DNA of 64,000 nt from Candidatus Nealsonbacteria bacterium (GTDB lineage: Bacteria > Patescibacteriota > Minisyncoccia > Minisyncoccales > MHMH01). The stretch spans positions 2,398 to 66,397 of the forward strand of contig JACPGX010000002.1 of NCBI GenBank assembly GCA_016188865.1. Reading direction: 5' to 3'. Made by a program: the position numbers and the translations under genes. Each line of letters starts with the position of its first letter. Position 1 is the first letter of the stretch. Under the pieces are notes generated by a model, which searched no databases, was not told the origin of the DNA, and was given only the letters and a program-made list of their open reading frames with translations. This document shows positions 9,792 through 58,044 of the stretch, in pieces.

Positions 9792-10244
9792 ATGATTTTA
9801 AGCGCTCATCTTCTTGCTGGGGCAGTTATCGCCTCAAAAATATCCAATCCGATCCTTGCTCTTCCCTTAGCTCTTTTAAGCCATTATTTTTTAGATTTGC
9901 TGCCCCAAACAGAATACTCAATCTCAAATATTAAAGCAAAACGTTGGAGTAAATCTCTTTTAGATTGGTCTAAAGTTTTTTTGGATATTTCCTTTGGAAT
10001 TTTATTAATTTATTTATTTTCCGATAAAAGCCCCCTAATCTTTATTGGAGCTATTCCAGCCATAATCCCGGATGGAATGACTTTAGTCTATATTCTTTTC
10101 CCCGGAAAAAAACTAATAAAACTGCATCATAAATTCCACCAAACCGTGAATAATGTCTACGATACTGAAACTAAAAGAAAACCCGCTCTTTGGGGCATTT
10201 TTATGCAGATTATCATAGCTCTAATAGCTATTTTCCTATTATAA
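9792..10244 (+). CDS. Small membrane protein (possibly a DUF457/YdjM-like membrane-bound hydrolase)
   Basis: Four hydrophobic segments and an N-terminal SAHLLAG...SHYFLDLLP pattern. Family assignment is tentative. Confidence 0.35.
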   Translation: MILSAHLLAGAVIASKISNPILALPLALLSHYFLDLLPQTEYSISNIKAKRWSKSLLDWSKVFLDISFGILLIYLFSDKSPLIFIGAIPAIIPDGMTLVYILFPGKKLIKLHHKFHQTVNNVYDTETKRKPALWGIFMQIIIALIAIFLL

Positions 10245-10923
10245 CCACAAATTCTCCCCTGATCTCTTCTTTTTCAAGCTGTTCCAAAACATCCTCAATC
10301 GTGCCCCGATAAATAGTTTCAAACTTTTTAGTTAACTCGCGGCAGACTACCACCGCTAAGGAACTTAGTTCCTTAGCCCTTAAGGAACTAAGTTCCTTAA
10401 GGGTTTTTATTATTCTATAAGGAGATTCGTAAAAAATTACCGGATATTTTGAATCCGCCAGCTGGCGAACTGCTTCCTCAAAAAACTTTTTTCTTTTATT
10501 TTTTACCGGCGGAAAACCCAAAAATAAAAACCTATCCATTGGCAAGCCAGAAATGGAAACTGCGGCAGTCAAGGCGCTCGGTCCCGGTATGGGCACAATT
10601 CTTATTAATGGATATCGGACATCCATTATTCTCCTAACCAATTGATTGCCGGGGTCGGAAATGCCGGGAGTGCCGGCATCGGAAACTAATGCCAAATTTT
10701 TACCTTCTTTCAAAAGCTGAAAGATATATTCAGCTTTATTTAATTTAGAGTGCTGATGATAACTTATGGTTTTAGTTTTAATCTCGTAATGATCCAGCAA
10801 CTTTTGAGTTTGCCTGGTATCTTCGCATAAAATTAAATCAACCGACTTTAAAATGTCGATTGCCCTTAATGTGATATCGCCAAGATTGCCAATTGGCGTA
10901 GCGACAATATAAAGAGTAGCCAT
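10228..10923 (-). CDS. rsmI: 16S rRNA (cytidine1402-2'-O)-methyltransferase
   Basis: LYIVATPIGNLGDITLRAI..L..VDLILCEDTR and SDAGTPGISDPG motifs. Confidence 0.9.
   Translation of the reverse strand: MATLYIVATPIGNLGDITLRAIDILKSVDLILCEDTRQTQKLLDHYEIKTKTISYHQHSKLNKAEYIFQLLKEGKNLALVSDAGTPGISDPGNQLVRRIMDVRYPLIRIVPIPGPSALTAAVSISGLPMDRFLFLGFPPVKNKRKKFFEEAVRQLADSKYPVIFYESPYRIIKTLKELSSLRAKELSSLAVVVCRELTKKFETIYRGTIEDVLEQLEKEEIRGEFVVIIGK
10355..10403. repeat. Two abutting perfect-arm palindromes inside rsmI
   Basis: GCTAAGGAACTtAGTTCCTTAGC overlaps CCCTTAAGGAACTaAGTTCCTTAAGGG. Encodes LKELSSLRAKELSSL. Confidence 0.85.
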
Positions 10924-22000: not shown

Positions 22001-22467
22001 ATCCACCATAAAGTTTCGATATATTCATTTTCATAGGTGACATAAGGGTGCTCCATATCTAACCAATAGCCAATCCTTTCGGTTAATTTCTCCCAATCTC
22101 GCTTGTATTGCCAAACCGATTCTTTGCATTGCTTATTGAATTCAGCGATACCATATCTTTCAATGTCTTTTTTATTTTTTAAGCCCAGCTTTTTCTCAAC
22201 TTCCAGTTCTACGGGCAAACCATGGGTATCCCAGCCGGCTTTTCTCAAAACCCTAAAACCCTGCATGGTCTTATAGCGGCAAATAATATCTTTGAAGGCG
22301 CGGCTTAAAACATGATGAATACCCGGCTTCCCATTAGCCGTCGGCGGTCCCTCGTAAAACACAAAATCCCGCGCCCTAGCGCGCTGTTTGATGCTTTTCT
22401 CAAAAATCTTCTTTTCTTTCCAGAACTTCAATATCTCTTCTTCTTTCTGGGAAAAATTTAACTCCAT
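19099..22467 (-). CDS. ileS: Isoleucyl-tRNA synthetase (type 2) with an inserted histidine-phosphatase domain
   Basis: HIGH (PPTANGKPGIHHVLSR), KMSKS, editing-domain TTPWTLPGN and WFDSG motifs. A PGAM-type domain sits at about aa 486-686 (YIMRHGQ ... IVSHCDPL). Confidence 0.95.
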   Translation of the reverse strand: MELNFSQKEEEILKFWKEKKIFEKSIKQRARARDFVFYEGPPTANGKPGIHHVLSRAFKDIICRYKTMQGFRVLRKAGWDTHGLPVELEVEKKLGLKNKKDIERYGIAEFNKQCKESVWQYKRDWEKLTERIGYWLDMEHPYVTYENEYIETLWWIVKQIYQKGLLYKDYKVVPYCPRCGTSLSSHEVAQGYKRIEENSIYVRFKIKNLKFKDSSLLVWTTTPWTLPGNVAVAVNPEFTYVKIKVGEEYLILAKDRMKPVGIVGEIVGEFKGRDLIGLEYERIFGMSDLPSDLSGGRTSKYRVVAGDFVSMEDGTGLVHIAPAFGEDDMKVGKENNLPVLVTVNEEGKMITPDYEWNEMFVKDADPLIIKDLQERGVLFKEELYEHDYPFCWRCKSPLLYYAKESWFIKMQDVKKDLIGNNQKINWVPSHLKDGRFGEWLKELKDWAFSRERYWGTPLPIWSCQSCGLKEVIGGKNDLLGQKFSANKYYIMRHGQNNHQVNNGDYIYPWPEKSPILLSKGGESDVRKAAKELKIKKIDIIYFSDMNRTRQTAQLVNEELGAEIISDMRLRDMNFGIYQGKKKEKYFKDFPKSVDSFYGRKPEGGENWGEVRKRMMSFISDIDQKHKNKTILIVSHCDPLWLLEGAVKGLSDEKLLKIKLAKKDIKTGEWRKLDFKNLPLDKEGRVDFHRPYIDEIKFYCSKCGEKMARVSEVCDVWFDSGSMPFASGAIFPADYISEAIDQTRGWFYTLLAVSTLLGKGAPYKNVISTGHVLDEKGEKMSKSRGNVVDPWYIVEKYGADAVRWYFYTVNQSGDSKLFTEKDIDQALKKFILILWNCFTFYKTYNIKTTNYKLKTKNLLDKWVVSRLNELIAETTYNLDKYDVTGAARAIEDFVVNDLSLWYIRRSRKRFNEAVGTLTLVLQTVSKLTAPFIPFLSEQIYENVSRHYEKRSRSIHLADWPKANKKLINKKLNQKMTRVREIVALALAERAKTGIKVRQPLTSLVIPEKMEKGLSEFIKEEVNVKKIIFSNILILDTKITPELKEEGIIREVIRQINEMRKEAGFKPKDKIFVQYSGASELNRILGKNKKFILSEIKAKDFKPGKGEKEINVDRQKLSLAVKKL
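19901..19935. repeat. Heptanucleotide tandem repeat (TTTNTAG-like x5) inside ileS
   Basis: tttttag tttttag tttatag tttgtag ttttaat. Encodes YNIKTTNYKLKTKNL. Confidence 0.75.
21572..21613. repeat. Palindromic element (diverged full-length copy), in-frame inside ileS
   Basis: GATGTCCGACCTCCCGACAAATCTGACGGGAGATCGGACATC. Encodes MSDLPSDLSGGRTS on the minus strand. Confidence 0.8.
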
Positions 22468-34457: not shown

Positions 34458-34491
34458 CACTTCGACAAAGCTCAGTGTAAACACAACCAAC

Positions 34492-44863: not shown

Positions 44864-44906
44864 GGAGGTCCGACCTCCACTCAAATTTGAGAGGAGATCG
44901 GACCTC
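44864..44906. repeat. 43-nt palindromic element, intergenic copy (EndoQ / Mth938-like spacer)
   Basis: GGAGGTCCGACCTCC-ACTCAAATTTGAGA-GGAGATCGGACCTC. Confidence 0.9.
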
Positions 44907-44914
44907 TTTTGTCT

Positions 44915-46180
44915 TTAAAACAACGTTTTCTGCTTCAAAATATCTTTCCTTTCGCTTTGGGAGAAAATCATAACCTTTCCGTATACCCCGTCGTAACCAG
45001 GCTCGATGGAAACCCTGCCCTCTCTTACCCTTATAATGCCTTCTGCTATTTCCGGCAAGGCGGCAGATTCTAATTCCTGTCTGGTGGCATCTAATAAAAT
45101 CTTAAACTCATTGCCAAAATTTTTAATTATATTTTTGTATTCTTTTTGTACTTGCTTACTGGCAACGCCAACACCCAAACTTTCAGCGATTATTTCTCCC
45201 AATGGGACTAAACTTTTAAAGGAAACGGCATTTTGAGGTTTACCCGCCGAAGATTTATCGAAGGCGGGCCTGTCGGCTAATTCCTCAACTCTATTCATCA
45301 CTCCGATAGTTAAAGGTTTCCCACAGGTTGGGCAAATGTTGTTGTATTTTTTTGATTCTTCGGGAGATAAAACAATTTCACAACTGCGGTGGCCGTCGTA
45401 GTGATATTTTCCTTCTTCCGGAAAAAACTCAATGGTGTGTAAAAAATTTTGCGGGTCCTTAGTTTTTATGGCGGTAATAATCGAATCATAGCTTAAAAAT
45501 GGCAAATCAAAGACATTGGCCTCCCTGCCTATTTTTGAGGGACTGTGAGCATCGCTATTGGAAATCAGGGCAATTTTATCTAATGCTGAAAGCCGCCAAT
45601 TCATTGCAGGATCGCTGCTCAATCCCGTCTCTATCGCATAAATATATTTTGAATAATCTTCAAAACACTCTTCAATTGAATTGAAGCCGGATTTTGAACC
45701 GAATACGGAAAACCAGGGAGTCCAAGCATGCGCGGGCACCACCAAACAATCTTCGGAGGCTCCTAAAACAATTTTAGCTAATTCTTTGGCATCCAAGCCC
45801 AAAATTGGCCGGCCGTCTGACTTTAAATTCCCAATCCACCCCAAACGAGCATTAATATTATCAACCGCCTCAAAAGAGGGAGCAAAAACTATAATATGAA
45901 TTTTCCTGACTCTGTTATTTTTTGAGTAGATACAGCTAATTTCGGCAGTTAAGATAAAACGCGTTTCCGAATTACCGCTTTTTAACTGAAAAAGCCCGGC
46001 TTCCGCGGATTTCAATTTTTCTTTCAGACTCTTAAACCATTCGGGATGCGTGAAGTCGCCCGTACCCAAAACCTTGATTCCCTTGATTTTTGCCCACTTA
46101 TCTAAATTTTCCAAGTCCATATCGCGGCTCGTCGCCCTTGAGTATTTGCTATGTATATGAAAATCCGCAATAAACCTCAT
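44915..46180 (-). CDS. Endonuclease Q-like PHP-domain protein
   Basis: MRFIADFHIHSKYSRATS N-terminus and a C-terminal Zn-finger-like CPTCGKPL, as in the EndoQ/TIGR00375 family. Confidence 0.75.
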   Translation of the reverse strand: MRFIADFHIHSKYSRATSRDMDLENLDKWAKIKGIKVLGTGDFTHPEWFKSLKEKLKSAEAGLFQLKSGNSETRFILTAEISCIYSKNNRVRKIHIIVFAPSFEAVDNINARLGWIGNLKSDGRPILGLDAKELAKIVLGASEDCLVVPAHAWTPWFSVFGSKSGFNSIEECFEDYSKYIYAIETGLSSDPAMNWRLSALDKIALISNSDAHSPSKIGREANVFDLPFLSYDSIITAIKTKDPQNFLHTIEFFPEEGKYHYDGHRSCEIVLSPEESKKYNNICPTCGKPLTIGVMNRVEELADRPAFDKSSAGKPQNAVSFKSLVPLGEIIAESLGVGVASKQVQKEYKNIIKNFGNEFKILLDATRQELESAALPEIAEGIIRVREGRVSIEPGYDGVYGKVMIFSQSERKDILKQKTLF

Positions 46181-46185
46181 GCTAA

Positions 46186-47304
46186 CTATCTAGCAAAAAA
46201 ATAGTAAATTTCAAAGAAAATGCCGAGAACGAAAAAAACAGGCAAAATATACATTAAGGGATTCATCGCTCTGGCAAATTTTTTAAGTAAAAAGGCGCGA
46301 TATAAAAATACAATAATTATTGCCTCAAAGCCCAAAGAAATAGCTCCGGTCAAACCGATAACGGCAATAAATTCTTTGAGGCCCAAGAAAAAGAGAATCA
46401 GCGGCAAAAAACAGGCGATAAGCCAGGACAATCTTCTCGGTAAACCGAAATCATACCAGAGAATTTTTTTAAAAGTCAGTCCCAAAGTGATAAAAGAGGT
46501 GAAGCAGGTAATCACTCCGAAAATAAATCCCAAACGAATTATGCCGTTGCCTAGAGTATTGGCCAGCCCGGAAATTGCTTCCTTGGAGGTATTTTGCCCG
46601 GTCGCGCCCAAAACCATGAAAATAAAAAATAAGTAAGTGACGACAGAAAGCAAAATTCCCGATACGATTACTCGTTTTAATAACTTCTTGGCGTCTGAAC
46701 CCAGCATTTCCTCCAATTCAGGTATCAAAGACGAACCCCATATGGCAAAGAGAATCACTCCGTAGGGCAAAGCGATAAAAGATAAATCGGTTTTTTGAAA
46801 ATTGCTAAAATCTATAAAGGGCGCGGCTTTAACAAAAATAACAATCAGAATGGCGAAAAAAACGAGGAGAAGCGAAAATTCCACCCGGGAAATATGTTTG
46901 ATGCCCCTTAAAATCAGGTAAGCGCCCGCGCCAAAAAAAAGAAGGGTGTAAATAAGATTATTGCCGCCAAAATAGGGGGCAAAGAAATATTCCAGAAATG
47001 TTCCCCCGACAATCAAATAAGCCAATATAGCGCCGACTAACCCAGAACCAATTGTCAGCAAAGTGATTTTTTTCCAATTAGGGCCCATATATTCCCCCGC
47101 AAATCCCGGTAAACGGTAAAGAGTTTCCGTGCCCAAGGCGACCTTGCCGAAAAGCAGATGAATCAGGATGGCGATAGTAGACATCGCTAAAAAATATATA
47201 AAAACAACAAAAAAGCCGGCCCTAGAAGCAATGTAGGGCAGGCCAAAAATTCCTACCCCGATGATTGTGCCGACAAAAACAGAAAGCGCCCTTATGAATT
47301 TCAT
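46186..47304 (-). CDS. Amino acid permease (aromatic/hydroxy amino acid transporter-like, 11 TM)
   Basis: 372 aa, hydrophobic throughout. N-terminal FVGTIIGVGIFGLPY motif. Confidence 0.6.
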   Translation of the reverse strand: MKFIRALSVFVGTIIGVGIFGLPYIASRAGFFVVFIYFLAMSTIAILIHLLFGKVALGTETLYRLPGFAGEYMGPNWKKITLLTIGSGLVGAILAYLIVGGTFLEYFFAPYFGGNNLIYTLLFFGAGAYLILRGIKHISRVEFSLLLVFFAILIVIFVKAAPFIDFSNFQKTDLSFIALPYGVILFAIWGSSLIPELEEMLGSDAKKLLKRVIVSGILLSVVTYLFFIFMVLGATGQNTSKEAISGLANTLGNGIIRLGFIFGVITCFTSFITLGLTFKKILWYDFGLPRRLSWLIACFLPLILFFLGLKEFIAVIGLTGAISLGFEAIIIVFLYRAFLLKKFARAMNPLMYILPVFFVLGIFFEIYYFFAR

Positions 47305-47637
47305 TTATTTTAACAGCTTAATCCCCAATCCAGCTATCTGGCCGCCGCCAAATATAAGAATTCCGGCGAAAATCGACCAACTCATCAAATTCAAAAGCCC
47401 GGGGATTGAGTCCGTCGGCAGTAAACCCTTTAGCTGATCTTGAAGGAGATTTTGCAATTGAGCTTCTACGCCTTGCTGGGCATTGGGAGTCGCTTTAACC
47501 TGCTCAAATTTAAAAATATCCGGAGCTGAAGTTTTGGCAGTAAAAATATTATAAGAAGAATAAAGGCTGTAAAGAATAATCGCCAAGCCAGCCAAAAGCA
47601 AAATTAAGCCAATAAGTTTCTTAACGGAGTTCATCAT
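47305..47637 (-). CDS. Hypothetical small membrane protein
   Basis: Two hydrophobic segments flanking a Q-rich linker. Confidence 0.4.
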   Translation of the reverse strand: MMNSVKKLIGLILLLAGLAIILYSLYSSYNIFTAKTSAPDIFKFEQVKATPNAQQGVEAQLQNLLQDQLKGLLPTDSIPGLLNLMSWSIFAGILIFGGGQIAGLGIKLLK

Positions 47638-47971
47638 AAAACGAAGATTTTTTAATTATTATTTTATAAATATTCTCTATAAAATCGCCGCCGGCGTATC
47701 CAATAATAAAAGCCAGTACCCCGCTGAAATTTCCCAAAAGAGTAAAGCCTATTTCTTTAACGGCCAATGTCGACAAAAGCCCGACTACTCCGGAAATAAA
47801 CATGGTTGCTAAAAAATAACGAGGCCTGAATTTTACTTCTTTATAGGAAAACATATATTTTACAAAACCAACCAAACCTCGCAGGATTCCTCCGGAAAAA
47901 CCGGCGAAAAAAATTAAAATCATAATTAAGATAATTATTTTACTCCTTGCCTTTAATAAATTTTTCTTCAA
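47621..47971 (-). CDS. Hypothetical small membrane protein
   Basis: Three TM segments. Overlaps both neighbouring genes in an operon-like arrangement. Confidence 0.4.
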   Translation of the reverse strand: MKKNLLKARSKIIILIMILIFFAGFSGGILRGLVGFVKYMFSYKEVKFRPRYFLATMFISGVVGLLSTLAVKEIGFTLLGNFSGVLAFIIGYAGGDFIENIYKIIIKKSSFYDELR

Positions 47972-48368
47972 CCGGCCTTAAAACAGCTAACACTAAAATA
48001 GCTAAAATAGCAGCGAAAATTGCCGGCATATAAAGCTTAATCCCCACCGCAGTTCCAATGGCTGCTGTTATCCAAAGGCCAGCTGCGGTAGTCAGCCCGC
48101 TGATATGAAACTCGCGATGAATAATGGAACCTGCGCCGATAAAGCCAATGCCTAAAACTATCTGGCCAATAATTCTGCTGGGGTCAAAGCCGGTAAATCC
48201 CGCAAAAAGCTTAATTGATTCAAAGGCAATTATTGTAAAAAAGGCCGCTCCCAAAGAAGCTAAAGCATAGGTCCTCAAGCCCGCTTCTTTTCTGCTGAAC
48301 TCTCTTTCTAAACCAACTAACCCGCCCAGCAGGGTAGCTAAAACTAATTGCCAAAACATCTCTAGCAT
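47940..48368 (-). CDS. MgtC/SapB family membrane protein
   Basis: LLGGLVGLEREFSRKEAGLRTYALASLGAA matches the family signature. Confidence 0.8.
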   Translation of the reverse strand: MLEMFWQLVLATLLGGLVGLEREFSRKEAGLRTYALASLGAAFFTIIAFESIKLFAGFTGFDPSRIIGQIVLGIGFIGAGSIIHREFHISGLTTAAGLWITAAIGTAVGIKLYMPAIFAAILAILVLAVLRPVEEKFIKGKE

Positions 48369-48382
48369 TTTAAAATTGGAGA

Positions 48383-48640
48383 TTAGAGTTTATAAACTTT
48401 ATATCCTTCCCTGACTTTTTGGTCAACTTTCAAGCCGACAGAATCGCCCTTCTTGGCTTTTTTAACTTTATCGCGCTCAATCTGCATTGATTCTACTTTC
48501 TGGGAAAAATCAGTTTCGCCGCCGACAATTCTTATTTCATCGCCTTCTTCTAATTTATCCGACAAATCAATCACTCCCACGCTAATGTTGCTGAAATAAT
48601 GGCTTATTTTGCCTATTAATTTTCCTTCTTTTTCTTTCAT
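48383..48640 (-). CDS. Small EF-Tu domain-2-like beta-barrel protein (translation elongation factor-like protein)
   Basis: 85 aa. GKISHYFSNISVGVIDLSDKLEEGDEIRI ... GDSVGLKV pattern. Confidence 0.5.
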   Translation of the reverse strand: MKEKEGKLIGKISHYFSNISVGVIDLSDKLEEGDEIRIVGGETDFSQKVESMQIERDKVKKAKKGDSVGLKVDQKVREGYKVYKL

Positions 48641-48656
48641 AAAAAATATAAATTTT

Positions 48657-49220
48657 TTACTTCGACCTTTTTGTTTTTTTAATAGCTGCGATTAATTTCT
48701 GAACTAATTTCTTCGGGTCGGTATCATACACAATAGGACCTCTTTTGGTATGGGGACGGGCTAGAATTATTTTGAGAAGGTCAGCTGTGCCTCCGGAGCC
48801 TTCCAAAACGCCAATTGGCTTTCTATCTTCATAGGCAATGGTAAATTCATTTAAGGTTCCCATCCTCCCGCAAACGACAATTACGCCGTCTGCTGCTCTA
48901 GTTAGTAAAAGATTCCTGCCGGAGTAATCAAACCCGGTATAAATTATGATATCAAATTGATCTAATGGAAGTTTATATACTTTTTTATGGGCCAACTCAG
49001 AAGCTGCCGGCGAAAATCCGATGCTGAATCCCCCCACCTCCTTGCATCCCACAGCAGCAAAATAAGGAACGCCGGTAGTAGCTCCGGTAAGTAAAAAACA
49101 ATCCTGCCAGAAAATCTGGCGGCCAACTTCTTTGGACAATTCTTCAATATTATTGCAGCAATGGCCAACTGCAGCTGCTCCAGAAACTGCTATCTTATAT
49201 TTTCCGGGATCGGGTGACAT
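48657..49220 (-). CDS. TIGR00725/LOG-like Rossmann-fold protein
   Basis: IAVSGAA...LLTGATTGVPYFAAVGCKEVGGFSIGFSP pattern. Confidence 0.55.
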   Translation of the reverse strand: MSPDPGKYKIAVSGAAAVGHCCNNIEELSKEVGRQIFWQDCFLLTGATTGVPYFAAVGCKEVGGFSIGFSPAASELAHKKVYKLPLDQFDIIIYTGFDYSGRNLLLTRAADGVIVVCGRMGTLNEFTIAYEDRKPIGVLEGSGGTADLLKIILARPHTKRGPIVYDTDPKKLVQKLIAAIKKTKRSK

Positions 49221-49243
49221 ATTATTTATTATACCATACTTTG

Positions 49244-49316
49244 TGCGCCCAACTGGAGTCGAACCAGTAATCTTTGGCTTCGGAGGCCAATGTTTTATCC
49301 ATTAAACTACGGGCGC
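49244..49316 (-). tRNA. tRNA-Arg (anticodon CCG)
   Basis: Manual cloverleaf: GCGCCCG-TA-GTTT-AATGGATA-AAAC-A-TTGGC-CTCCGAA-GCCAA-AGATT-ACTGG-TTCGACT-CCAGT-TGGGCGC-A. 73 nt, CCA not encoded. Confidence 0.9.
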
Positions 49317-49326
49317 TTTAATATTA

Positions 49327-49369
49327 GGAGGTCCGACCTCCACTCAAATTTGAGAGGAGGTCGGACCTC
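49327..49369. repeat. 43-nt palindromic element, intergenic copy (10 nt upstream of the tRNA-Arg 5' end)
   Basis: GGAGGTCCGACCTCC-ACTCAAATTTGAGA-GGAGGTCGGACCTC. Confidence 0.9.
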
Positions 49370-49453
49370 TCGCCATCTTTACAAATTAAAATATCTATGA
49401 TATACTCTATTGTATAGTAGCTTAAAAACTCGGCCCTGGAAAGGAGCTTTAAG

Positions 49454-49807
49454 ATGGATTTTGATAAAATAGCCGTATTCTTTTACTGCGCAACGTTGAA
49501 CCATTTCCTGGCTGACTTTCTCTCTCATCGCAAAAAGAAGGGAGCCTTCATTTTCCTGCATTGTTTTCTCTACGCCATGTTATTCATGCCCCTGTTCTGG
49601 TGGCTAGGGGTTAACCTTCTATGGCTATTTCTTCTTTTCTCTTCTCACTTAGCGATTGATTCCCAGTGGAAAAGACTGCTCTCGTTCTTTAACAATCAAA
49701 CCAAGGAGCAAGAAAAACTAAGCCAAACTACCCTAATAATTTTCACCGTAGGACTAGATCAGGTACTCCACCTCTCGATGCTGGTTGTTATTGCTTTCAC
49801 TTTTTAG
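49454..49807 (+). CDS. Hypothetical membrane protein (possibly DUF3307-like)
   Basis: 117 aa with 3-4 TM segments and conserved His residues. Family assignment is tentative. Confidence 0.35.
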   Translation: MDFDKIAVFFYCATLNHFLADFLSHRKKKGAFIFLHCFLYAMLFMPLFWWLGVNLLWLFLLFSSHLAIDSQWKRLLSFFNNQTKEQEKLSQTTLIIFTVGLDQVLHLSMLVVIAFTF

Positions 49808-49817
49808 GGAGGGAAAA

Positions 49818-50012
49818 TTGGATAAAAAAACTGGGAAACATCATTTCCATATCCGATTTGAAATAGAAAAAGTGGGAATTTTCGAAAGATGGGCTTGGTA
49901 TAAAAACCGAGACAGCTTTGTCAAATCCTTGGCCATAGAATTCGAAAAGAGACTCCGCCGCAAGATTTTCATTAAAGTTCTTACCTTTGAAGAAATCCCC
50001 CACCCCGCATAG
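49818..50012 (+). CDS. Hypothetical small protein
   Basis: TTG start after GGGAGGG. The track gives 49785. A hairpin terminator follows. Confidence 0.3.
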   Translation: MDKKTGKHHFHIRFEIEKVGIFERWAWYKNRDSFVKSLAIEFEKRLRRKIFIKVLTFEEIPHPA

Positions 50013-50085
50013 GTTTGGGGGATTTTAATTCAAGATTATATGAGCATACCTTAGCGAATCAAGGTTCTCGCCAGGGGCGAGGTTC

Positions 50086-50781
50086 TTATTTTTCGGCGAC
50101 TAAATAAATATTCTGCCGTTTTTTATTTTTGCTTTTCGCAAAACCTATTTTTTTTACTTTTAAACCAACTTCCTCTATCGGTTTTGCTAATTCTTTTTTT
50201 GAAAACCAATGATAATATCTTTTAACATTCGTTTTGCCCCAGGGGTCCAAAACATCGCCAAAATCCAATTTTGATAAACCAAGTAATTTTTGAAGCGTAT
50301 ATTTTAAAAGCAAAAAGCGCATTTTGGGCTGAGAAAACTTCCAAACTGTCAAAATCAAAAGGCCGTTCGGCTTCAATACCCTTCTTGCTTCTTCTAAAAA
50401 CATCGAGCGCGATTCGCTTGATGGAATATGATGAAAAACAGCGATACTGTAAACTTTATCGAAAGAATTATCTGGGAAAGGCAGCTGCATAGCGTCGCCA
50501 ACCTGAAATTTCGCTTGGGGGTATCTGGTTTTAGCTATTTCAATAAGTTTCTCGGATGGGTCAATTCCCAAATAGTCTACATTTTTATTCATGCAAAATT
50601 CAAAAAATCGCCCATTACCGCAACCCAAATCTAAAACTTTATCGCCTGAAGCCAAATAATCATCAAATAGAAACTTGAGCTCGGGCCAAGGCTCTCGCCT
50701 TTTCCCGGAAAATTCTTCGGCAATCAAATTATAATCCTCTTTAGTTTTTCCCAACAAATATTGCGCGTAATTTTTATCCAT
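50086..50781 (-). CDS. Class I SAM-dependent methyltransferase
   Basis: Motif I: VLDLGCGNGRF. Post-I: acidic residue in YLGIDPS. Confidence 0.8.
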   Translation of the reverse strand: MDKNYAQYLLGKTKEDYNLIAEEFSGKRREPWPELKFLFDDYLASGDKVLDLGCGNGRFFEFCMNKNVDYLGIDPSEKLIEIAKTRYPQAKFQVGDAMQLPFPDNSFDKVYSIAVFHHIPSSESRSMFLEEARRVLKPNGLLILTVWKFSQPKMRFLLLKYTLQKLLGLSKLDFGDVLDPWGKTNVKRYYHWFSKKELAKPIEEVGLKVKKIGFAKSKNKKRQNIYLVAEK

Positions 50782-50818
50782 GGTATATTCATTTTAGCAT
50801 ATTTATAGGAGGCAAAAA

Positions 50819-51409
50819 ATGGCTGTCGGCAGAGTAGAATTCGAGAAAAAACTTAAAGAAAAAATAGATTTAACGCCAAGGGAATTTCAACTGATAATGC
50901 TTGCGTACAAGCTTGCCAAATACGGCCATGGCCACAAAGGCCAAATGCGTGATGACGGGAAAATCCGTTATTTTGAACATCCCAAAGCAGTAGCCCTTAT
51001 ATTAATCGAAGAAAATACGCGGTTTATCGTGGTTAAGCCATGGCAGATTGTCGCAGCTTTGCTGCACGATATTAAAGAGAATACTTTCATTCTATCGTGG
51101 AAAGATATCGAATTGATTTTTGGCAAACGAGTTAGAAAAAGCGTGAGAATTATGACTAAAGACGAGGTATTTCGTGGCGAAGTCTATTTCAAAAGGCTAT
51201 CTATGGCTTCATCGGAAGATATAGATAACAAACTTGCTGACCGCCTCCACAATATGCGCACTCTCGGTGATTGCTCTTCGGAAAAACAAAAAGAATATCT
51301 CAAAGAAACTGTTGATTTTTATCTGCCTCTGGCAAAAAAACGCAACGGTTATCTCTATTTCTTGTTAGAACAAGAATGCAAAAAATACGCCAACAAAGAA
51401 CTGCCCTAA
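50819..51409 (+). CDS. HD-domain protein, SpoT/Mesh1-like (p)ppGpp hydrolase family
   Basis: HKGQMRDDGKIRYFEHPKAVA and ALLHDIKENT motifs. Confidence 0.65.
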   Translation: MAVGRVEFEKKLKEKIDLTPREFQLIMLAYKLAKYGHGHKGQMRDDGKIRYFEHPKAVALILIEENTRFIVVKPWQIVAALLHDIKENTFILSWKDIELIFGKRVRKSVRIMTKDEVFRGEVYFKRLSMASSEDIDNKLADRLHNMRTLGDCSSEKQKEYLKETVDFYLPLAKKRNGYLYFLLEQECKKYANKELP

Positions 51410-51460
51410 ACAGTTCTTTTTATTTACAAAACCCCTCGGAAAACATATAATAATTAGGTT

Positions 51461-53017
51461 ATGAATACTGCCGAAATAATGATTATGGAAATTATGAAAA
51501 ACCGGCTGAAAACTCCGGAGGATTTGGCATCTGTAAAAAGGAAAATGTCAAAAAAATACAAAGTCCCCTGTCCCAGCAATATTAAACTGTTAGAAACTTA
51601 CCGTAAAATGCTTGAGAATAAAAAAATTAAAAAAACTCCGCTGATTGAAAAATTACTGCGAACCCGGCCGGTAAGATCGCTTTCCGGCATTGTAAACATT
51701 TCGGTTTTAACCAAACCCTACCCTTGCCCCGGAAAATGTATTTATTGTCCCACCGAAAAAGGCATTCCCAAAAGCTATGTCTCCGGAGAACCAGCCGTAG
51801 AAAGAGCAAAAAAATTAAATTTTGACCCCTATTTACAGGTAAAAAAAAGAATTGAAACCTTGGAAATGGAAGGCCACCCTACGGATAAAATAGAGCTGCG
51901 CATAGTTGGTGGAACATGGTCTTATTACCCAAAAAAATACCAGGAATGGTTCATCAAGCGCTGCTTTGAATCTTGCAATAATGGTCGGACGTCGGGTTTC
52001 CGACCAACTCAGAGGTTCAATGAGCGAGCTCGGCACCGTATTGTCGGACTATCTATAGAAACTAGACCAGACTTTATAAATCTCGGCGAGATTAAATGGC
52101 TTAGAGAACTTGGCGTAACAATGGTTGAGCTGGGGGTTCAATCAATTTACGACGATGTTTTAAAATTCAATAATCGCGGCCATGGGGTGAAGGAGATAAG
52201 CGAGGCCACCAAACTCTTAAAAAATGCTGGCTTCAAAATCCTTTATCAAATGATGCCCAATCTGCCCGGCTCAACTTCAACTCGTGATTTAAAAATGTTC
52301 GGAGAACTGTCCTCTGATTTTCGATTTAAGCCAGATTTATTAAAAATATATCCGTGTGCTTTAGTTAAAGGAGCGCCGCTTTACAAATTATGGAAAAATA
52401 AAAAATATAAACCGTATACTGAAAAACAACTAATAAATTTAGTGAAATCAATCAAAAAAATCATCCCCTATTATGTGAGGATACAAAGAATCACCAGAGA
52501 CATTCCTTCTCATAGCATAGCGGCCGGGCCTGCAAAAATATCAAATTTACGGCAAATAGTTTCCGGTAATTGTAAGTGCATCCGCTGCCGGGAAGTGGGG
52601 GCAAATTACGATCCCAAGGAAAAATTATATTTATTCCGCCAAGATTACAACGCCTCCGGCGGCAAGGAGATTTTTTTATCTTTTGAAAACAAAAATCGAA
52701 GCAAACTTTACTCCCTACTCCGCCTTCGTCTATGTAACGGGTCGTACCAGTTACATGGGGCAGTTATCCGGGAGCTTCACACTTACGGCCAATCGCTAGA
52801 GGTCTGGCATCCCTCCAAATTTGGGGGAGGTCGGACCTCTCCCTCTCCGCAACACAAGGGATTGGGGAGAAAACTCATCAAAGAGGCGGAAAAAATCTCC
52901 GAAAAAGAATTCGGCTTTAATAAAATTACGGTAATTTCCGGTATCGGCGCAAGAGATTACTATCGAAAACTCGGCTATAGACTGGAAAATACTTATATGG
53001 TAAAAAAATTAAGATAG
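51461..53017 (+). CDS. elp3: Elp3-like radical SAM plus GNAT tRNA-modification enzyme
   Basis: Radical-SAM cluster motif CPGKCIYCP, ELGVQS, and a C-terminal GNAT region (QHKGLGRKLIKEAEKI). Confidence 0.85.
   Translation: MNTAEIMIMEIMKNRLKTPEDLASVKRKMSKKYKVPCPSNIKLLETYRKMLENKKIKKTPLIEKLLRTRPVRSLSGIVNISVLTKPYPCPGKCIYCPTEKGIPKSYVSGEPAVERAKKLNFDPYLQVKKRIETLEMEGHPTDKIELRIVGGTWSYYPKKYQEWFIKRCFESCNNGRTSGFRPTQRFNERARHRIVGLSIETRPDFINLGEIKWLRELGVTMVELGVQSIYDDVLKFNNRGHGVKEISEATKLLKNAGFKILYQMMPNLPGSTSTRDLKMFGELSSDFRFKPDLLKIYPCALVKGAPLYKLWKNKKYKPYTEKQLINLVKSIKKIIPYYVRIQRITRDIPSHSIAAGPAKISNLRQIVSGNCKCIRCREVGANYDPKEKLYLFRQDYNASGGKEIFLSFENKNRSKLYSLLRLRLCNGSYQLHGAVIRELHTYGQSLEVWHPSKFGGGRTSPSPQHKGLGRKLIKEAEKISEKEFGFNKITVISGIGARDYYRKLGYRLENTYMVKKLR
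51983..52005. repeat. Short GGTCGGA...TCCGACC hairpin inside elp3 (possible degraded palindromic element)
   Basis: GGTCGGACGTCGGGTTTCCGACC encodes NGRTSGFRPT. It shares the GRTS reading with other copies. Confidence 0.45.
52799..52840. repeat. Palindromic element (left arm degenerate), in-frame inside elp3
   Basis: GAGGTCTGGCATCCCTCCAAATTTGGGGGAGGTCGGACCTCT. Encodes LEVWHPSKFGGGRTS in the linker before the GNAT motif. Confidence 0.7.
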
Positions 53018-53041
53018 CACCTTGCCATAAAGGAGGCTGTG

Positions 53042-53896
53042 ATGAAAGAGATAAAGACTGTCGGAGTGGTTGGGGCTGGCACAATGGGCCAGGGTATTGC
53101 TCAAATTTGCGGCCAAAAGGGCTTTGTTACGCTTATCCATGATATTGACCGCACCAGGCTCATAAAAGGATCTAATAATATAACAGAAAATCTATACAAG
53201 CTGCGCGACAAAGGCAAAATTACTCAAGAAGAGTGGAACGCCATGGCTGGCAGAATGTATGTTGCTTACGATTTAGAAAACTTAAAAACTGCTGATTTGG
53301 TTATTGAAGCTATTGTCGAAAAGGAAGCGGCGAAAATGGCTTTGTATAAACAATTGAGTGTAATTTGCCCGGAAAAAACAATTTTTGCCACAAACACCTC
53401 ATCAATCTCAATCACCAAACTGGCGAACGCTACAAAAAGGCCAGAAAAATTTATCGGCATTCATTTTATGAATCCTGCGACGATAATGCCGCTGATCGAA
53501 GTCATCAAGGGCTTGCGTACATCGGAAGAAACATTGCAAGCTGCCATGGATTTTTGCAGAAAACTTGATAAAACGCCTCTTTTATCCAACGACTCGCCCG
53601 GGTTCATTGTCAATAGAATCTTAATGCCGATGATTAATGAAGCAATTTTTGCTTTCCAGGAAGAAGTGGCTGATGCTAAAACCATAGATGAAGCAATGAA
53701 ATTGGGCACTAATCAAAAAATGGGGCCGCTGGAACTAGCTGATTTTATCGGACTGGATATTTGTTTGGCCATAATGGAAACTCTCTATCGTGATCTTAAT
53801 AATCCTAAATATCAACCGTGCCCGCTTCTTAGGAAATATGTTGCTGACGGATTCTTGGGCAGAAAAACTGGAAAAGGATTTTATGAATATAAATAA
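53042..53896 (+). CDS. hbd: 3-hydroxybutyryl-CoA / 3-hydroxyacyl-CoA dehydrogenase
   Basis: [18 protein letters not shown]-binding motif, HFMNPA, and GFIVNRIL. Confidence 0.9.
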
Positions 53897-53936
53897 AAAT
53901 AGAAAAGGAGTGATTTTTCAATCACTCCTTTTTTGT

Positions 53937-55103
53937 TTATTCGTTTCCAAAAGCAGAAATGCCGGTAATATCTTTTCCAATAATCAAGAGATGGATATTA
54001 TGCGTTCCTTCGTAAGTAGAAACTGCTTCCAAGTTCATCATATGCCTGACAATTCTGTGATCCAGATGAATGCCATTGGCTCCCAGTAAATCTCTGGCAT
54101 CCCGGGCGATTTTCAGGGCGTGATAAACATTATTCATTTTAGCCATTGATATTTGCTGATGGCGCTCCTTGCCCTCATCCTCCAATCTGCCTAATTGAAG
54201 CGCCAATAATTGACCCTTGGTAATTTCAGTAAGCATTTCTACCAGACTTTTTTGAACCAGCTGAAATGACGCTATGGGTTTGCCAAATTGCTTTCTTTGT
54301 TTGGTGTAATTCAAGGCTATTTCATAACATTCAATAGCTGCCCCTAAAGCTCCCCAGGCAATACCGTAACGAGCTTCATTCAAACACATTAGGATAGCTT
54401 TTAATCCTTCAGCTTTGGGCAGCATATTCTTTTCAGGGACGGCGACATTATCCAAAATCAACTCCGAAGTGACTGAAGCTCTTAAAGACATCTTGCCTTT
54501 GATATCAACAGCCGAAAATCCTTCCATGCCTTTTTCCACCAAAAAACCCCTTATGCCTTTTTGAGTTTTTGCCCAGACAATAGCCACATCGGCAATACTG
54601 CCATTGGTAATCCACATTTTAGTTCCGTTGAGAATATAGTTCTCCCCGTCTTTTTTAGCCGTGGTTTTCATGCTGGCGGGATCGGAACCAGCGTCAGGCT
54701 CGGTTAAGCCAAAACAGCCGATTTTTTCTCCTGAAGCCAGTTTTGGCAGCCAAAAATTTTTCTGTTCTTCAGAACCAAAAGTTTCAATCGGATACATCAC
54801 TAAAGAATTAGTCACGGAAACAAAACTTCGCAATCCGCTGTCGCCTCTTTCTAATTCTTGGCAAACCAGTCCGTAAACCATATTACTGGCTCCCGGACAG
54901 CCGTAGCCTTGAGTTTTTATTCCCAAAAGGCCAAGCTGGGCAAGCTGCGGGATAATCTCCCTTGGAAAGCGATCTTTCTCAAAACAGTCCTTAATAATTG
55001 GCAGATAATTTTTACCTACCCACTTCTGCACTTCATCTCTTATATTTTTTTCATCTTCAGAAAGCGAATCATTTATTCCATAGTAATCAGTCGCCATTCG
55101 CAC
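53937..55103 (-). CDS. Acyl-CoA dehydrogenase (glutaryl-CoA dehydrogenase-like)
   Basis: CFGLTEPDAGSD, the ACAD middle beta-domain, and C-terminal YEGTHNIH. Confidence 0.85.
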   Translation of the reverse strand: MRMATDYYGINDSLSEDEKNIRDEVQKWVGKNYLPIIKDCFEKDRFPREIIPQLAQLGLLGIKTQGYGCPGASNMVYGLVCQELERGDSGLRSFVSVTNSLVMYPIETFGSEEQKNFWLPKLASGEKIGCFGLTEPDAGSDPASMKTTAKKDGENYILNGTKMWITNGSIADVAIVWAKTQKGIRGFLVEKGMEGFSAVDIKGKMSLRASVTSELILDNVAVPEKNMLPKAEGLKAILMCLNEARYGIAWGALGAAIECYEIALNYTKQRKQFGKPIASFQLVQKSLVEMLTEITKGQLLALQLGRLEDEGKERHQQISMAKMNNVYHALKIARDARDLLGANGIHLDHRIVRHMMNLEAVSTYEGTHNIHLLIIGKDITGISAFGNE

Positions 55104-55174
55104 GCCTCCTTAATTTTCAAATTACAAATCTTTCTTATCTTATATAAATTAAAAGAAAAGTCAACCCAGATGAC

Positions 55175-56431
55175 TTATGTTCCTTCCTGCCAACTGGATA
55201 GGTATTTTTTTTGTTCCTCGGTTAGTTCGTCGATCGTAATATCCATAGCTTCCAGCTGAAGTTTGGCGATAAAATCATCTAATTCTTCCGGCAGCATAAT
55301 AACATCTGTCGGTAATTTTCCCTTACTCTTAACTAAATATTCAACCGAAAGCGCTTGGCCGCAAAATGAAGTGGACATTACTTCTGAGGGGTGGCCTTCG
55401 GCAGCAGCCAAATTGACTAATCTGCCTTCGCCGGCAACAAAAATCTTCTTTCCCTGCACCATATATTCATCTAAAGAAGGCCGAACCCGCCTTACAGATT
55501 CCGATATTTTCTTTAATCCCTTGAGATCTATTTCCACGTCAAAGTGCCCGGAATTGGCAAGAATGACTCCGTCTTTCATAACTTGCATATGTTCAGACCT
55601 GACAACATTAAGATCGCCTGTTAGCGTTATAAATATATCGCCGATTTTAGCCGCTTCCTCCATGGGAAGCACCCTAAAGCCGTCGTAAGCTGCCTGAAGC
55701 GCTGGAAAATTCGCCACTTCTGTTACGATAACGTTTGCTCCCATGCCCTTCGCTCTCATTGCCGCCCCCTTGCCGCAGCTTCCATAGCCGGCAATAACCA
55801 CATTTTTTCCGGCCACTAAAATATTAGACGATCTTATAATCCCATCCCAGGTTGATTGGCCTGTGCCATAATAATTATCCAATAAATGCTTAGTTTTATT
55901 ATCATTAACGGCAATTATCGGGTATTTTAAAGCGCCGTCTTTTTTCATGGCTTTTAATCTTACTATGCCGGTGGTTGTTTCTTCGCAGCCGCCGATAATT
56001 TGCGGAATCAAATTTTCATGCTTCTTATGAATTTCCGAAACCAAATCCATGCCGTCATCAATGGTAATGTGCGGTTTAAAATCAATCACGTATTCTAAAT
56101 AGCGATAATAATCTTCGGTTGTTTCTCCCTTATATGCCCAAACATTGACGCCATCTGACGCCAAGGCGGCTGCTACATCGTCTTGAGTGCTTAAGGGGTT
56201 ACACCCGGTAATAGCCACTTGGGCGCCGCCAGCCATAAGAGTTTTAACTAAAACAGCGGTTTCTTTAGTAACATGAAGGGCCAGACCCACTCTTATGCCC
56301 TGAAGCGGCTTTTCTTTTTCAAAGCGTTTCTTTATTTTCATCAAGGCACCCATATGCATCTCTGCTAATTCTATATTTAATTTTCCCTGCTCGGCTAATT
56401 TTATATCTTTTACTTCGTGCATAAATATCAA
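55175..56431 (-). CDS. ahcY: Adenosylhomocysteinase
   Basis: ALHVTKETAVLVKTL, CNPLSTQDDVAAAL, and the NAD motif GYGSCGKG. Confidence 0.95.
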   Translation of the reverse strand: MIFMHEVKDIKLAEQGKLNIELAEMHMGALMKIKKRFEKEKPLQGIRVGLALHVTKETAVLVKTLMAGGAQVAITGCNPLSTQDDVAAALASDGVNVWAYKGETTEDYYRYLEYVIDFKPHITIDDGMDLVSEIHKKHENLIPQIIGGCEETTTGIVRLKAMKKDGALKYPIIAVNDNKTKHLLDNYYGTGQSTWDGIIRSSNILVAGKNVVIAGYGSCGKGAAMRAKGMGANVIVTEVANFPALQAAYDGFRVLPMEEAAKIGDIFITLTGDLNVVRSEHMQVMKDGVILANSGHFDVEIDLKGLKKISESVRRVRPSLDEYMVQGKKIFVAGEGRLVNLAAAEGHPSEVMSTSFCGQALSVEYLVKSKGKLPTDVIMLPEELDDFIAKLQLEAMDITIDELTEEQKKYLSSWQEGT

Positions 56432-57000
56432 ATTCCGATAATTTTAAAAGCCTCGCTGGCCCTCGTCTCCACCGCCCCCCTTAATTCGTGATGCTTTATA
56501 TCATGCAAATGCAAAAATTTATCAATTCGATTGGAAATTTCTTCTATTTTGTCGGTATAAAGACGAACGCCGTCTTTTTCTGCGGGAATTTCCGGCGGAA
56601 GAAAAAACACGAAATCGTAGCTGTTTATATCGCCTTTAATCTCCTGCCAGAGTTTATTTTCAATCTTTTTCAGTATCTCTGCTTCTCTTTTATCAATAAC
56701 ACCGTCATTTAAAAAATGAAAGTAAACATGGGAAAGAAAAGCCGGCACATCGCAAACAACAAATTCAGGATTACTGCTACAAGCAGTTTTCTCTTTTTCT
56801 TTTTGCCCCTTAACTATTAAAAGCTGATCTTCCGGGCCTTTTATGCCTCCTTTCTCAACGATAAAATCTCTGGCAAACTCGCTCACAAATTCGGCCGTAT
56901 AATTTTTCTTTGCTAATTCCTCCGTCAAATATTTAGCCAAGGTGCTTTTTCCAGTGCTGGGCCCGCCTACAAAACAAATTTTCTTCGGCTTTGCATCCAT
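56428..57000 (-). CDS. P-loop ATPase/kinase (NadR-type ribosylnicotinamide-kinase-like)
   Basis: Walker A: GGPSTGKSTLAKYL. Size and layout of a small nucleoside/nucleotide kinase. Confidence 0.5.
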   Translation of the reverse strand: MDAKPKKICFVGGPSTGKSTLAKYLTEELAKKNYTAEFVSEFARDFIVEKGGIKGPEDQLLIVKGQKEKEKTACSSNPEFVVCDVPAFLSHVYFHFLNDGVIDKREAEILKKIENKLWQEIKGDINSYDFVFFLPPEIPAEKDGVRLYTDKIEEISNRIDKFLHLHDIKHHELRGAVETRASEAFKIIGI

Positions 57001-57049
57001 TACTTTATTCTAACAAAAAAAGCCGCCATAAGCGACCGCCGAAATATCC

Positions 57050-57093
57050 GGAGATCCGATCTCCTCTCAAATTTGAGTGGAGATCGGATCTCC
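57050..57093. repeat. 44-nt palindromic element, intergenic copy in inverted orientation with compensatory arm substitutions
   Basis: GGAGATCCGATCTCC-TCTCAAATTTGAGT-GGAGATCGGATCTCC. Confidence 0.9.
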
Positions 57094-57099
57094 CGAATA

Positions 57100-58044
57100 T
57101 TAAATTCGTTTTACTCTGATTAGTCCTGAACAGGGAATAATTTCAATGCCCTGTTTTTCTAATTCATCTAAAAATAGATTCACTCCGATAGAATCTGAAG
57201 AAATGTGTCCGGCAATAACAATATTAATATTGGCGGTTTCCGCTTCTTTTTTATGTTCTTCGGAAACATGCATGCCAACTACGGTGCCGATGCCCGCCTG
57301 CGCCATTTTTTCATAAAGCTTGGGCGAGCCCTCTGTGCCGCCGGTAAGTTCGGTTAAGGCTATTTTTCCGCAACGGCTTTCCGGAGAACCAACAAAAATC
57401 TTGGGGCCTGCCCCGATTCTCATAGCCTCTTTATATTCCGGGACTTCTTTAAGTAATTTCATCAAATCATCGATTCTTTCCACTTTTGCCGAATCGATTT
57501 TATCTTTTAAAAATTTGGCTACTAAATTATCGCAAGGAGTGTGGGCATTCATCAAATTAAAACCTAAAAGTTTGGCGGCGTCTACCGTTCTTTGATGATT
57601 TTTAGCGTTAATTCCTCTGGCTACTTCTGATATCTTTTCCCGCATCAAACCCTCGGCCACATTTATCGGCACGCCGTATAAACTGAAAATTTCGCACTGC
57701 ATATCCATCACCTCGTGAAGATTGGCCAGCCCCTTGCCCAAAGGATGATGGGCGATAATCAAATCAATGCCGCCCAATTCTTTGGCAATCAAAATTTCAG
57801 CCGGCTCAATATCTATGCCAACCAAAACTTTTTTAATTTCTTTGTCATCGGCAATATTATAAATCCTGGAGTCCAAATAGGGATTTTCCAATGCTTCTTT
57901 GTCAAATTCTTCTTTTTTTGCTGCAGCTAGATTGTCATATTGCTCCTTTTTTCTGCTTAAAAGTTTCTCTACGGCTTCTCTTCCCCGCAAATCAGAATCA
58001 ATGCCCATTTTTATCGCCAAATTGTATATGTCTTGTGTTCGCAT
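57100..58044 (-). CDS. NIF3 (DUF34) family dinuclear-metal-centre protein
   Basis: DLIIAHHPL and NAHTPCDN motifs. Confidence 0.7.
   Translation of the reverse strand: MRTQDIYNLAIKMGIDSDLRGREAVEKLLSRKKEQYDNLAAAKKEEFDKEALENPYLDSRIYNIADDKEIKKVLVGIDIEPAEILIAKELGGIDLIIAHHPLGKGLANLHEVMDMQCEIFSLYGVPINVAEGLMREKISEVARGINAKNHQRTVDAAKLLGFNLMNAHTPCDNLVAKFLKDKIDSAKVERIDDLMKLLKEVPEYKEAMRIGAGPKIFVGSPESRCGKIALTELTGGTEGSPKLYEKMAQAGIGTVVGMHVSEEHKKEAETANINIVIAGHISSDSIGVNLFLDELEKQGIEIIPCSGLIRVKRI

Follow-up and report, generated by a model that had tools for sequence, protein, structure and literature searches.

A REPIN-like family of inverted palindrome doublets, with probable RAYT-like partner genes, in Candidatus Nealsonbacteria and other Patescibacteria

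A 64,000-nt stretch of DNA from Candidatus Nealsonbacteria, analysed here as a whole and referred to as the window, carries six doublets and one single copy of a 15-nt palindrome that resembles the repetitive extragenic palindromic (REP) units of other bacteria, and we consider it likely that these elements belong to a REPIN-like family with a RAYT-like (REP-associated tyrosine transposase-like) partner in Patescibacteria. Elements of the same anatomy form a family in related genomes, are present at some sites and absent from the orthologous sites of relatives, and lie in physical association with RAYT-like genes of the same arm types. Four of the seven window copies are in-frame within genes (Tgt, IleRS, ELP3-like and TP_methylase-family), as are about half of those elsewhere, so that the family is not purely intergenic, as an earlier note on three of the window copies had described it. 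Related sequences used for comparison are labelled L (loci) and P (proteins).

Each arm is a REP-like hairpin of 15 nt, with a 5–7-bp stem (GGAGG/CCTCC or GGAGA/TCTCC) round a constant TCSGA core, and a doublet joins two arms, inverted relative to each other, by a centre that is short, variable and as a rule palindromic (Table 1). The arm pattern GGAGRTCSGAYCTC, allowing up to two mismatches, gave 24 strand-hits in the window against 1.1 expected from dinucleotide shuffles, and none of 100 shuffles reached 24. A covariance model (R1), built from an alignment of 11 copies (A1), returned exactly six doublets from the window at E ≤ 1e-9, the next match having an E of ~2. Among them are the three intergenic doublets of the earlier note (copies 1–3), each where that note had placed it, with the right arm one base longer; the further copies that it had suggested seeking by model were also found, as three more doublets and a single arm in the window and as copies in many Patescibacteria genomes. 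Its description of the surroundings was borne out as well, in that copies 1 and 3 each have co-directional minus-strand genes on either side, copy 2 lies just upstream of a tRNA-Arg gene, and copy 3 is inverted relative to the unpaired bases at the ends of its centre. All window doublets read C...G at the arm centre, and opposite or mixed orientations are rare elsewhere (G...C in L077, G...G at position 885 of L017), a comparison in which most of the other loci had been selected with the C...G pattern. A weak AT-rich motif, RATWTT, stands just outside each arm, in coding copies too, which brings the unit of the 44-nt class to ~58 nt, and AAT/ATT or GTT/AAC flanks extend the palindrome. Pfam annotation of the ten genes adjoining window copies returned housekeeping functions throughout and no transposase, and an Rfam scan of the window placed only tmRNA and tRNA above thresholds, with no curated RNA family at the elements.

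Table 1. REP-like elements of the window, with positions in the 64,000-nt stretch, and palindrome types at RAYT-like genes of related loci
Feature	Position	Sequence or type	Context
Copy 1, full REP doublet, 44 nt	44864..44907	minus (sense) strand: AGAGGTCCGATCTCC-TCTCAAATTTGAGT-GGAGGTCGGACCTCC	7 nt past the stop of PHP-like gene 44915..46180(-); 9 nt ahead of the ATG (44854) of a DUF498 gene
Copy 2, full REP doublet	49327..49370		10 nt upstream of tRNA-Arg(ccg) 49243-49316 (minus)
Copy 3, full REP doublet	57050..57093	GGAGATCSGATCTCC subtype	6 nt past the stop of NIF3-like gene 57100..58044(-); between this gene and an AAA_28 gene
Tgt copy, short-centre doublet, 15+3+15 nt	7953..7985 (-)		in tRNA-guanine transglycosylase gene 7193..8344 (minus), in-frame
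IleRS copy, diverged 44-nt doublet	21571..21614 (-)		in isoleucyl-tRNA synthetase gene 19099..22467 (minus), in-frame
ELP3 copy, degenerate doublet	52798..52840 (+)		in ELP3-like radical-SAM gene 51461..53017 (plus), in-frame
Single REP arm	10610..10624 (-)	GGATATCGGACATCC	within TP_methylase-family gene 10228..10923(-)
L150 RAYT-like gene		GGATATCCGATATCC	
L151 RAYT-like gene		GGATTTCCGAAATCC	
L152 RAYT-like gene		CGACGTCCGACGTCG	
L153 RAYT-like gene		GGCAGTCCGACTGCC	
L003 RAYT-like gene		GGAGGCCCGGCCTCC	inside gene and downstream; upstream end lies beyond the locus

Candidate partner genes were sought with a motif scan (H.H..(30-110 residues)Y..N[PQ]), which identified two open reading frames (ORFs) adjoining elements, in L017 and L003. 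Both pass the Pfam model PF01797 (Y1_Tnp) with 27 and 36.6 bits, respectively, at a cut-off of 23, and their best NCBIfam match is NF047646, REP-associated tyrosine transposase (E 1e-10 and 1e-11). The RAYT-like proteins carry the motifs MPNHxH and YIHxNP and belong to a family of at least 1498 members at E ≤ 1e-5, ~225–245 aa long, whose hosts, where named, are Nealsonbacteria, Pacebacteria, Patescibacteria group or simply 'bacterium', many of the genes being on ~1-kb contigs. Several of the genes stand in conserved synteny (rpsI-PDDEXK-x-gene..mreB, with murA too in L150 and L152), suggesting that the gene is vertically inherited and single-copy. Four RAYT-like genes were counted in ~230 kb of element-selected loci, as opposed to none in 873 kb of other loci.

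At most of the gene loci examined, one type of 15-nt palindrome occupies three sites, namely 20–35 nt upstream of the ATG, inside the coding sequence at about residue 50, and just after the stop; the upstream palindrome is degenerate in L153/L154 and L155. Between close homologues the palindrome type varies by locus through compensatory stem changes and the TCSGA core stays constant (Table 1), and a more distant paralogue in L025 has the same three-site layout with a different palindrome, AGGAGCTTAGCTCCT. Wherever the DNA of a locus was read, the internal palindrome matched the flanking copies in type. Its translation, a G-x-(P/R)-(I/T)-S-like peptide ~25 residues before the HUH motif, was present in 120/120 aligned homologues (P0241–P0360). 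For three proteins the palindrome type was predicted from this internal peptide and then compared with the DNA. The peptides of P0339 (GGPTS) and P0330 (GGRTS) predicted the window arm, and the DNA of L155, L156 and L157 carries GGAGGTCSGACCTCC: L155 has GGAGGTCCGACCTCC inside its RAYT-like gene and downstream, and in both L156 and L157 a full doublet stands 18 nt ahead of the ATG, with one arm in the gene and two arms past the stop. That of P0267 (GDPIS) predicted the allele of copy 3, and L158 carries GGAGATCSGATCTCC, with GGAGATCCGATCTCC upstream of and inside the gene and GGAGATCGGATCTCC past the stop. The two arm alleles of the window, GGAGGTCSGACCTCC and GGAGATCSGATCTCC, are the types of two separate RAYT-like lineages, and its single arm is similar to the GGATATCSGATATCC type, which flanks RAYT-like genes in L150 and L017.

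This pairing of arm types with gene lineages alters how the differences between window copies are read. The earlier note had pointed to four compensatory substitutions separating copy 3 from copy 2 as a sign of selection on, or copying of, a folded form; the substitutions stand (G>A and C>T in each arm, at positions 5 and 11) and all preserve pairing, but they are changes that also separate two REP subtypes seen elsewhere, and need not show selection at the RNA level at this site, since GGAGATCSGATCTCC is a separate subtype that flanks, and lies inside, its own RAYT-like gene in another genome. The window also has intermediates between the two alleles, among them copy 1, changed at one of the four positions. 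Arm-to-arm conversion, by template switching at quasi-palindromes, probably also acts within the genome, and stays plausible because copies 2 and 3 have the same centre.

Comparison of orthologous spacers in 80 ELP3-anchored metagenome loci and L016, proposed in the earlier note, gave a different history for each intergenic copy. Copy 1 is absent in the closest relative, L016 (~80% protein identity), which reads TAA-CC-ATG at this position; copy 1 is therefore an insertion, as the relative has a spacer of only 2 nt where the window has one of 60 nt, and in L069 and L095 only 0–1 nt separate stop and start. L016 has copy 2 too, at the orthologous site, with arms 30/30 identical and a 29-nt flank that differs at four positions; L069 lacks it. 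No copy 3 is present downstream of the orthologous gene in L069, L133, L106, L138, L088, L096 and L077 (~73–84% protein identity for the neighbouring gene), and several of these relatives show an ordinary terminator at that site. Outside the 44 nt of the element the copies no longer resemble one another, which means that they are not parts of a larger duplicated segment, and, with presence and absence differing among relatives, the independent insertions favoured in the earlier note are upheld. Doublet density was six in the 64 kb of the window versus three in 873 kb of related Patescibacteria loci, and a further ~12 kb from the same organism held none. Such a pattern is in keeping with insertions that differ in age and with an expansion specific to the lineage.

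The copies inside coding sequences show a similar patchiness. In Tgt, the doublet encodes EEVRPPREVGP in a variable loop, and is carried by P0002 and P0006 and lacking in homologues of 82–84% identity; the same loop in P0008, P0009, P0014, P0017 and L066 (~10230–10270) holds another doublet, GAAGCCCGGCTTC..GAAGCCAGGCTTC (peptide EARLPxEAGL), with compensatory changes relative to the window arm at positions 4/12 and 6/10. The IleRS copy encodes approximately GMSDLPSDLSGGRTS and is missing from P0121 (81% identity) and found in P0174 (80%). The ELP3 copy, encoding approximately LEVWHPSKFGGGRTS, lies in a loop that exceeds that of most recovered homologues by ~8 residues (80 loci kept); a second candidate remnant in the same gene (~51975–52010, NGRTSGFRPT) was not counted as a copy, its loop having the same length as in homologues. 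Copies in genes elsewhere lie within long ORFs in all three frames, with peptides such as EVRPP.., GGRTS/GGPTS.. and RRSDL... As the sequence itself shows, all six frames of the arms are free of stop codons, which explains how short-centre forms survive inside genes. The IleRS of the window (1122 aa) also has an inserted histidine-phosphatase-like domain (RHG...SH); the corresponding Pfam family, PF00300, is present in its closest homologues (P0121–P0131) and lacking in most other IleRS matches.

Coding loops gain a net 1–12 residues compared with the 11–17 encoded by the element, so simple insertion does not fully describe these copies: either native residues were lost along with the insertion, or the motif was written over the existing loop. 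The latter recalls the binding sites of a dimeric chromosomal protein or DNA-uptake signals (parS/NBS/USS-like), which would arise by point mutation and biased retention, and such sites would likewise be short palindromes of low density, in coding and non-coding DNA, identical across distant Patescibacteria, as the 15-mers are. Point mutation, however, does not account for the ~58 nt that copy 1 adds between genes that abut in relatives, for the uniform C...G reading of the window doublets, for the recurrence of whole doublets, centres included, at unrelated loci, or for the covariation of arm type with the adjacent Y1 gene, and we regard binding or uptake sites as a most improbable origin.

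The shortfall in coding loops is one of several findings that weigh against a REPIN-like family with a RAYT-like partner. The NF047646 scores of 40–45 bits fall below the 80-bit cut-off of that model, and phmmer with E. coli RayT found no match among all ORFs of the related loci, the proteins being distant from characterised RAYTs. A RAYT-like gene was found neither in the window nor in the ~12 kb of extra sequence from the same organism, copy density is modest next to that of classical REPs, and no GTAG or CGTC tag, the defining feature of two REP superfamilies, is present at the Patescibacterial elements or gene loci. A clean target-site duplication could not be defined: the ATAT-containing flanks do not separate a duplication from an inverted repeat, as the whole element is palindromic, and loops too variable at 66–85% identity yielded no clean boundaries or target duplications for the coding copies.

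[quoted passage not shown] No IS with matching (GGAGGTCCGACCTCC-like) ends was seen in ~1.2 Mb of Patescibacteria sequence, however, and no unambiguous target-site duplication was found. The conserved part is instead the internal hairpin unit, which also occurs singly and brackets Y1 genes with the matching type. Conventional MITEs are for these reasons very unlikely, and a REPIN-like family remains our preferred reading.

In a two-arm scan of one genome per species, the element was found at 35 loci, nearly all of them in Patescibacteria metagenome-assembled genomes (MAGs), with centres of 2–21 nt that are often palindromic. A centre of 19 nt, CGAAATTAACGTAATGTTA, is found repeatedly at unrelated loci of several genomes, as are 49-nt and 44-nt subfamilies. 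Intergenic copies sit in tight spacers between co-directional genes, in the order stop, 5–16 nt, element, 9–17 nt, ATG. The degenerate two-arm pattern matched 28 loci in IMG/VR viral contigs, none of which was the element, all being chance matches or tandem repeats. Contigs of independent assemblies break inside the element, as might be expected if the palindromes were an artefact of assembly or sequencing; assemblies from many projects nevertheless contain the same elements, which lie in-frame within conserved genes and recur at orthologous positions of different genomes, leaving the likelihood of an artefact close to nil.

The elements fold into very stable structures. The predicted free energy of the long hairpin lies between −30 and −36 kcal/mol for RNA and is −21 kcal/mol under DNA parameters, and copy 3 with its flanks, where pairing reaches into AATATTCG/CGGATATT (~57042–57101), attains −41.6 kcal/mol (z = −7 against shuffles). 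In the 11-copy alignment, the long-hairpin model paired 90.8% of cells with seven double-sided pair changes, a figure that none of 500 shuffles reached, and the small-hairpin model paired 87.4% with five. One long hairpin or three small ones had been envisaged in the earlier note; the long form is supported at −36.4 kcal/mol, and the three small hairpins proved much weaker at −14.7 kcal/mol. A change in the IleRS copy points the same way, as its L4:R12 pair is T:A in place of G:C, keeping inter-arm pairing and breaking intra-arm pairing, so that the inter-arm helix is what is kept.

Folding also differs between strands. All three asymmetric window copies fold better as sense than as antisense RNA: copy 1, with one arm position forming G.U on the sense strand (−33.8 versus −29.3 kcal/mol), the IleRS copy (−33.9 versus −27.9) and the ELP3 copy, whose left-arm changes are G.U on the sense strand (−29.1 versus −20.6). 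The single arm reads GGAUGUCCGAUAUCC on its sense strand, all positions paired including one G.U, and in a small sample the internal transition mismatches on the sense strand comprise ~10 G.U versus two A.C. Copy 2 lies downstream of a conserved promoter-like block (TATAAT/TACAAT..ATAGTATA), and therefore probably sits in the 5' leader of the tRNA.

Such features would suit RNA elements selected by the host as mRNA 3' stabilisers, RNase III processing sites or cistron decouplers, with spread and conservation following from function. Intergenic copies lie in transcribed spacers, the RNA hairpin is very stable and better formed in the sense strand, with its excess of G.U over A.C, and the arms of copy 2 are conserved in L016 beyond their flank. 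Against this, relatives manage without copies 1 and 3, several having ordinary terminators at the site of copy 3; mRNA-end elements would hardly be expected in coding loops, in all frames; and an RNA hairpin needs neither self-palindromic arms nor the same arms bracketing a transposase gene. The G.U bias derives from ~12 events, and strand-biased C>T mutation could produce it. We therefore think an RNA function unlikely as the primary origin, and the observations are compatible with secondary co-option. Three specific roles were considered and set aside. An intrinsic terminator is ruled out by the lack of a U-run after the element on the sense strand; a bidirectional promoter (TTGAG centre with flanking TAATAT) was dropped, given that the centre varies and that copies in coding sequence have these flanks too; and sequestration of the Shine-Dalgarno sequence is ruled out because GGAGG lies 19–27 nt from start codons, too far for such a role.

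The same features allow a more speculative reading, doubtful in our judgement, in which the Patescibacterial REP–RAYT pair is a host system and not a parasite, with the Y1 protein recognising the REP hairpin, on DNA or RNA, as a kind of address. Such a system might allow the transposase gene to be autoregulated and neighbouring or host genes to be tuned. This reading fits because the internal palindrome peptide stands at a fixed position, because doublets occur in translation-related genes and near a tRNA, and because the copies fold better in the sense strand.

The closest known counterparts are REPINs, which are inverted REP doublets with a variable yet hairpin-forming spacer and one predominant orientation, and whose RAYTs are flanked by REPINs (PMC3337134; also PMC3116915, PMC5581495). 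Like the REPIN/RAYT systems of Pseudomonas fluorescens SBW25 and E. coli, the Patescibacterial family pairs GC-rich palindromic units inversely round a variable hairpin spacer with one orientation dominant, has copies in transcribed intergenic space and an apparently single-copy, vertically inherited Y1/HUH partner gene bracketed by the same REP type, and matches different REP types with different RAYT lineages. In contrast to REPINs, its elements are short, at 32–51 nt (~58 nt with flanks) as against 89 nt for the GI REPIN (PMC3337134), and have a TCSGA core of 5 nt that stays constant while the stem on either side covaries; some half of the copies lie in-frame in genes, where REPs are by definition extragenic, and a REP lies within the RAYT-like coding sequence itself. 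The protein, at ~230 aa, is longer and divergent, falls below the NCBIfam RAYT cut-off and comes from Patescibacteria.

Other families of short repeats share single traits with the elements. The GTAG- and CGTC-tagged REP superfamilies are 20–40-bp palindromic repeats, single or in doublets, defined by their terminal tetranucleotide (PMC3733652), and the Patescibacterial repeats resemble them in being short palindromes that occur singly or as doublets, and differ in the lack of either tag noted above. Rickettsia palindromic elements are ~100–150 bp long, carry a conserved peptide, are limited to Rickettsia and have no known transposase partner (PMC10969869). As in that family, the palindromes here lie in-frame in unrelated housekeeping genes and add a peptide without destroying the gene, but they measure 33–51 nt, are read in three frames and are linked to a Y1 gene. 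The Correia/CREE and ERIC MITEs span 100–200 bp and have defined terminal inverted repeats, and Correia hairpins are cut by RNase III (PMC10969869). Co-transcription with neighbouring genes and long hairpins are common to these MITEs and the elements described here. Correia elements duplicate a TA target, and we know of no Y1 association for Correia/CREE or ERIC.

Several further observations were made on the window and the loci compared with it. Nested palindromes that share the architecture but have unrelated arms occur in other Patescibacteria genomes, at L066 15797–15827, L069 17281–17326, L128 755–802 and L141 1978–2025; they comprise doublets of GGGGGACAGTCCCCC, doublets of ATCGCAGTCGAACTGCGAT and a GTAGAGCCATGCCA..TGGCATGGCTCTAC unit that starts with GTAG. 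At L149 6154–6190 (same organism, ~3.7 kb beyond the right end of the window) lies a terminator hairpin of canonical form, CGATCTCCG-loop-CGGAGATCG with a T-run after it, and its stem equals the inner part of the copy-3 arms. L148, an independent Logan contig, ends within the Tgt copy at window position 7983, and the L068 contig of the closest relative ends exactly at the ELP3 copy. The tmRNA gene of the window (34129–34458) encodes the tag peptide ANLFKQPAYALA. At ~1946–2419 (L148 4478–4951), a grdA-like gene (PF04723) in a glycine-reductase cluster appears in the gene calls as two adjoining ORFs, as an in-frame UGA selenocysteine codon would be expected to produce. An ORF at 3816–4898 (minus) matches LAGLIDADG_3 / Hom_end (homing-endonuclease-like) and lies between phosphoribosyltransferase and PNP_UDP_1 genes, and in the closest relative a UvrD/AddA-like helicase-nuclease (L064 5234–9292) contains an intein (Hint / Intein_splicing matches).

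Taken with what is known of characterised RAYTs and of IS200/IS605 enzymes, the REPIN-like reading offers a mechanism for the spread of the doublets. The family would co-evolve with a Patescibacterial clade of ~230-aa HUH/Y1 (IS200-like) proteins, one of which is presumably encoded elsewhere in this genome; the enzyme would recognise the REP hairpin in single-stranded DNA, and would copy or move the non-autonomous doublets in trans. Copies would then persist where they are tolerated, in transcribed spacers just past stops, in a 3' untranslated region, in a tRNA leader and in variable protein loops, the last being possible because the arms are free of stop codons. Once in a transcript, a doublet would form a very stable hairpin and may secondarily affect mRNA decay, processing or translational coupling.

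REP/REPIN–RAYT systems have been studied mainly in Proteobacteria, and the reason for the retention of single-copy RAYTs is still debated. Our literature search found no link of RAYTs or REPINs to Patescibacteria phyla, nor the arm sequence itself. The family described here would extend the REP/REPIN–RAYT system to the ultra-small, streamlined genomes of Patescibacteria, with an unusually clean code in which a constant TCSGA core is joined to a covarying stem that matches the transposase lineage. Its repeats colonise protein-coding loops of essential genes, and one repeat is conserved inside the transposase gene; the system would be of greater interest still if that intragenic REP and the copies in translation genes were functional. 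In practice, the hairpins appear to break short-read assemblies and thereby fragment Patescibacteria MAGs, and the short peptides that the repeats add to conserved enzymes can mislead alignments and annotation.

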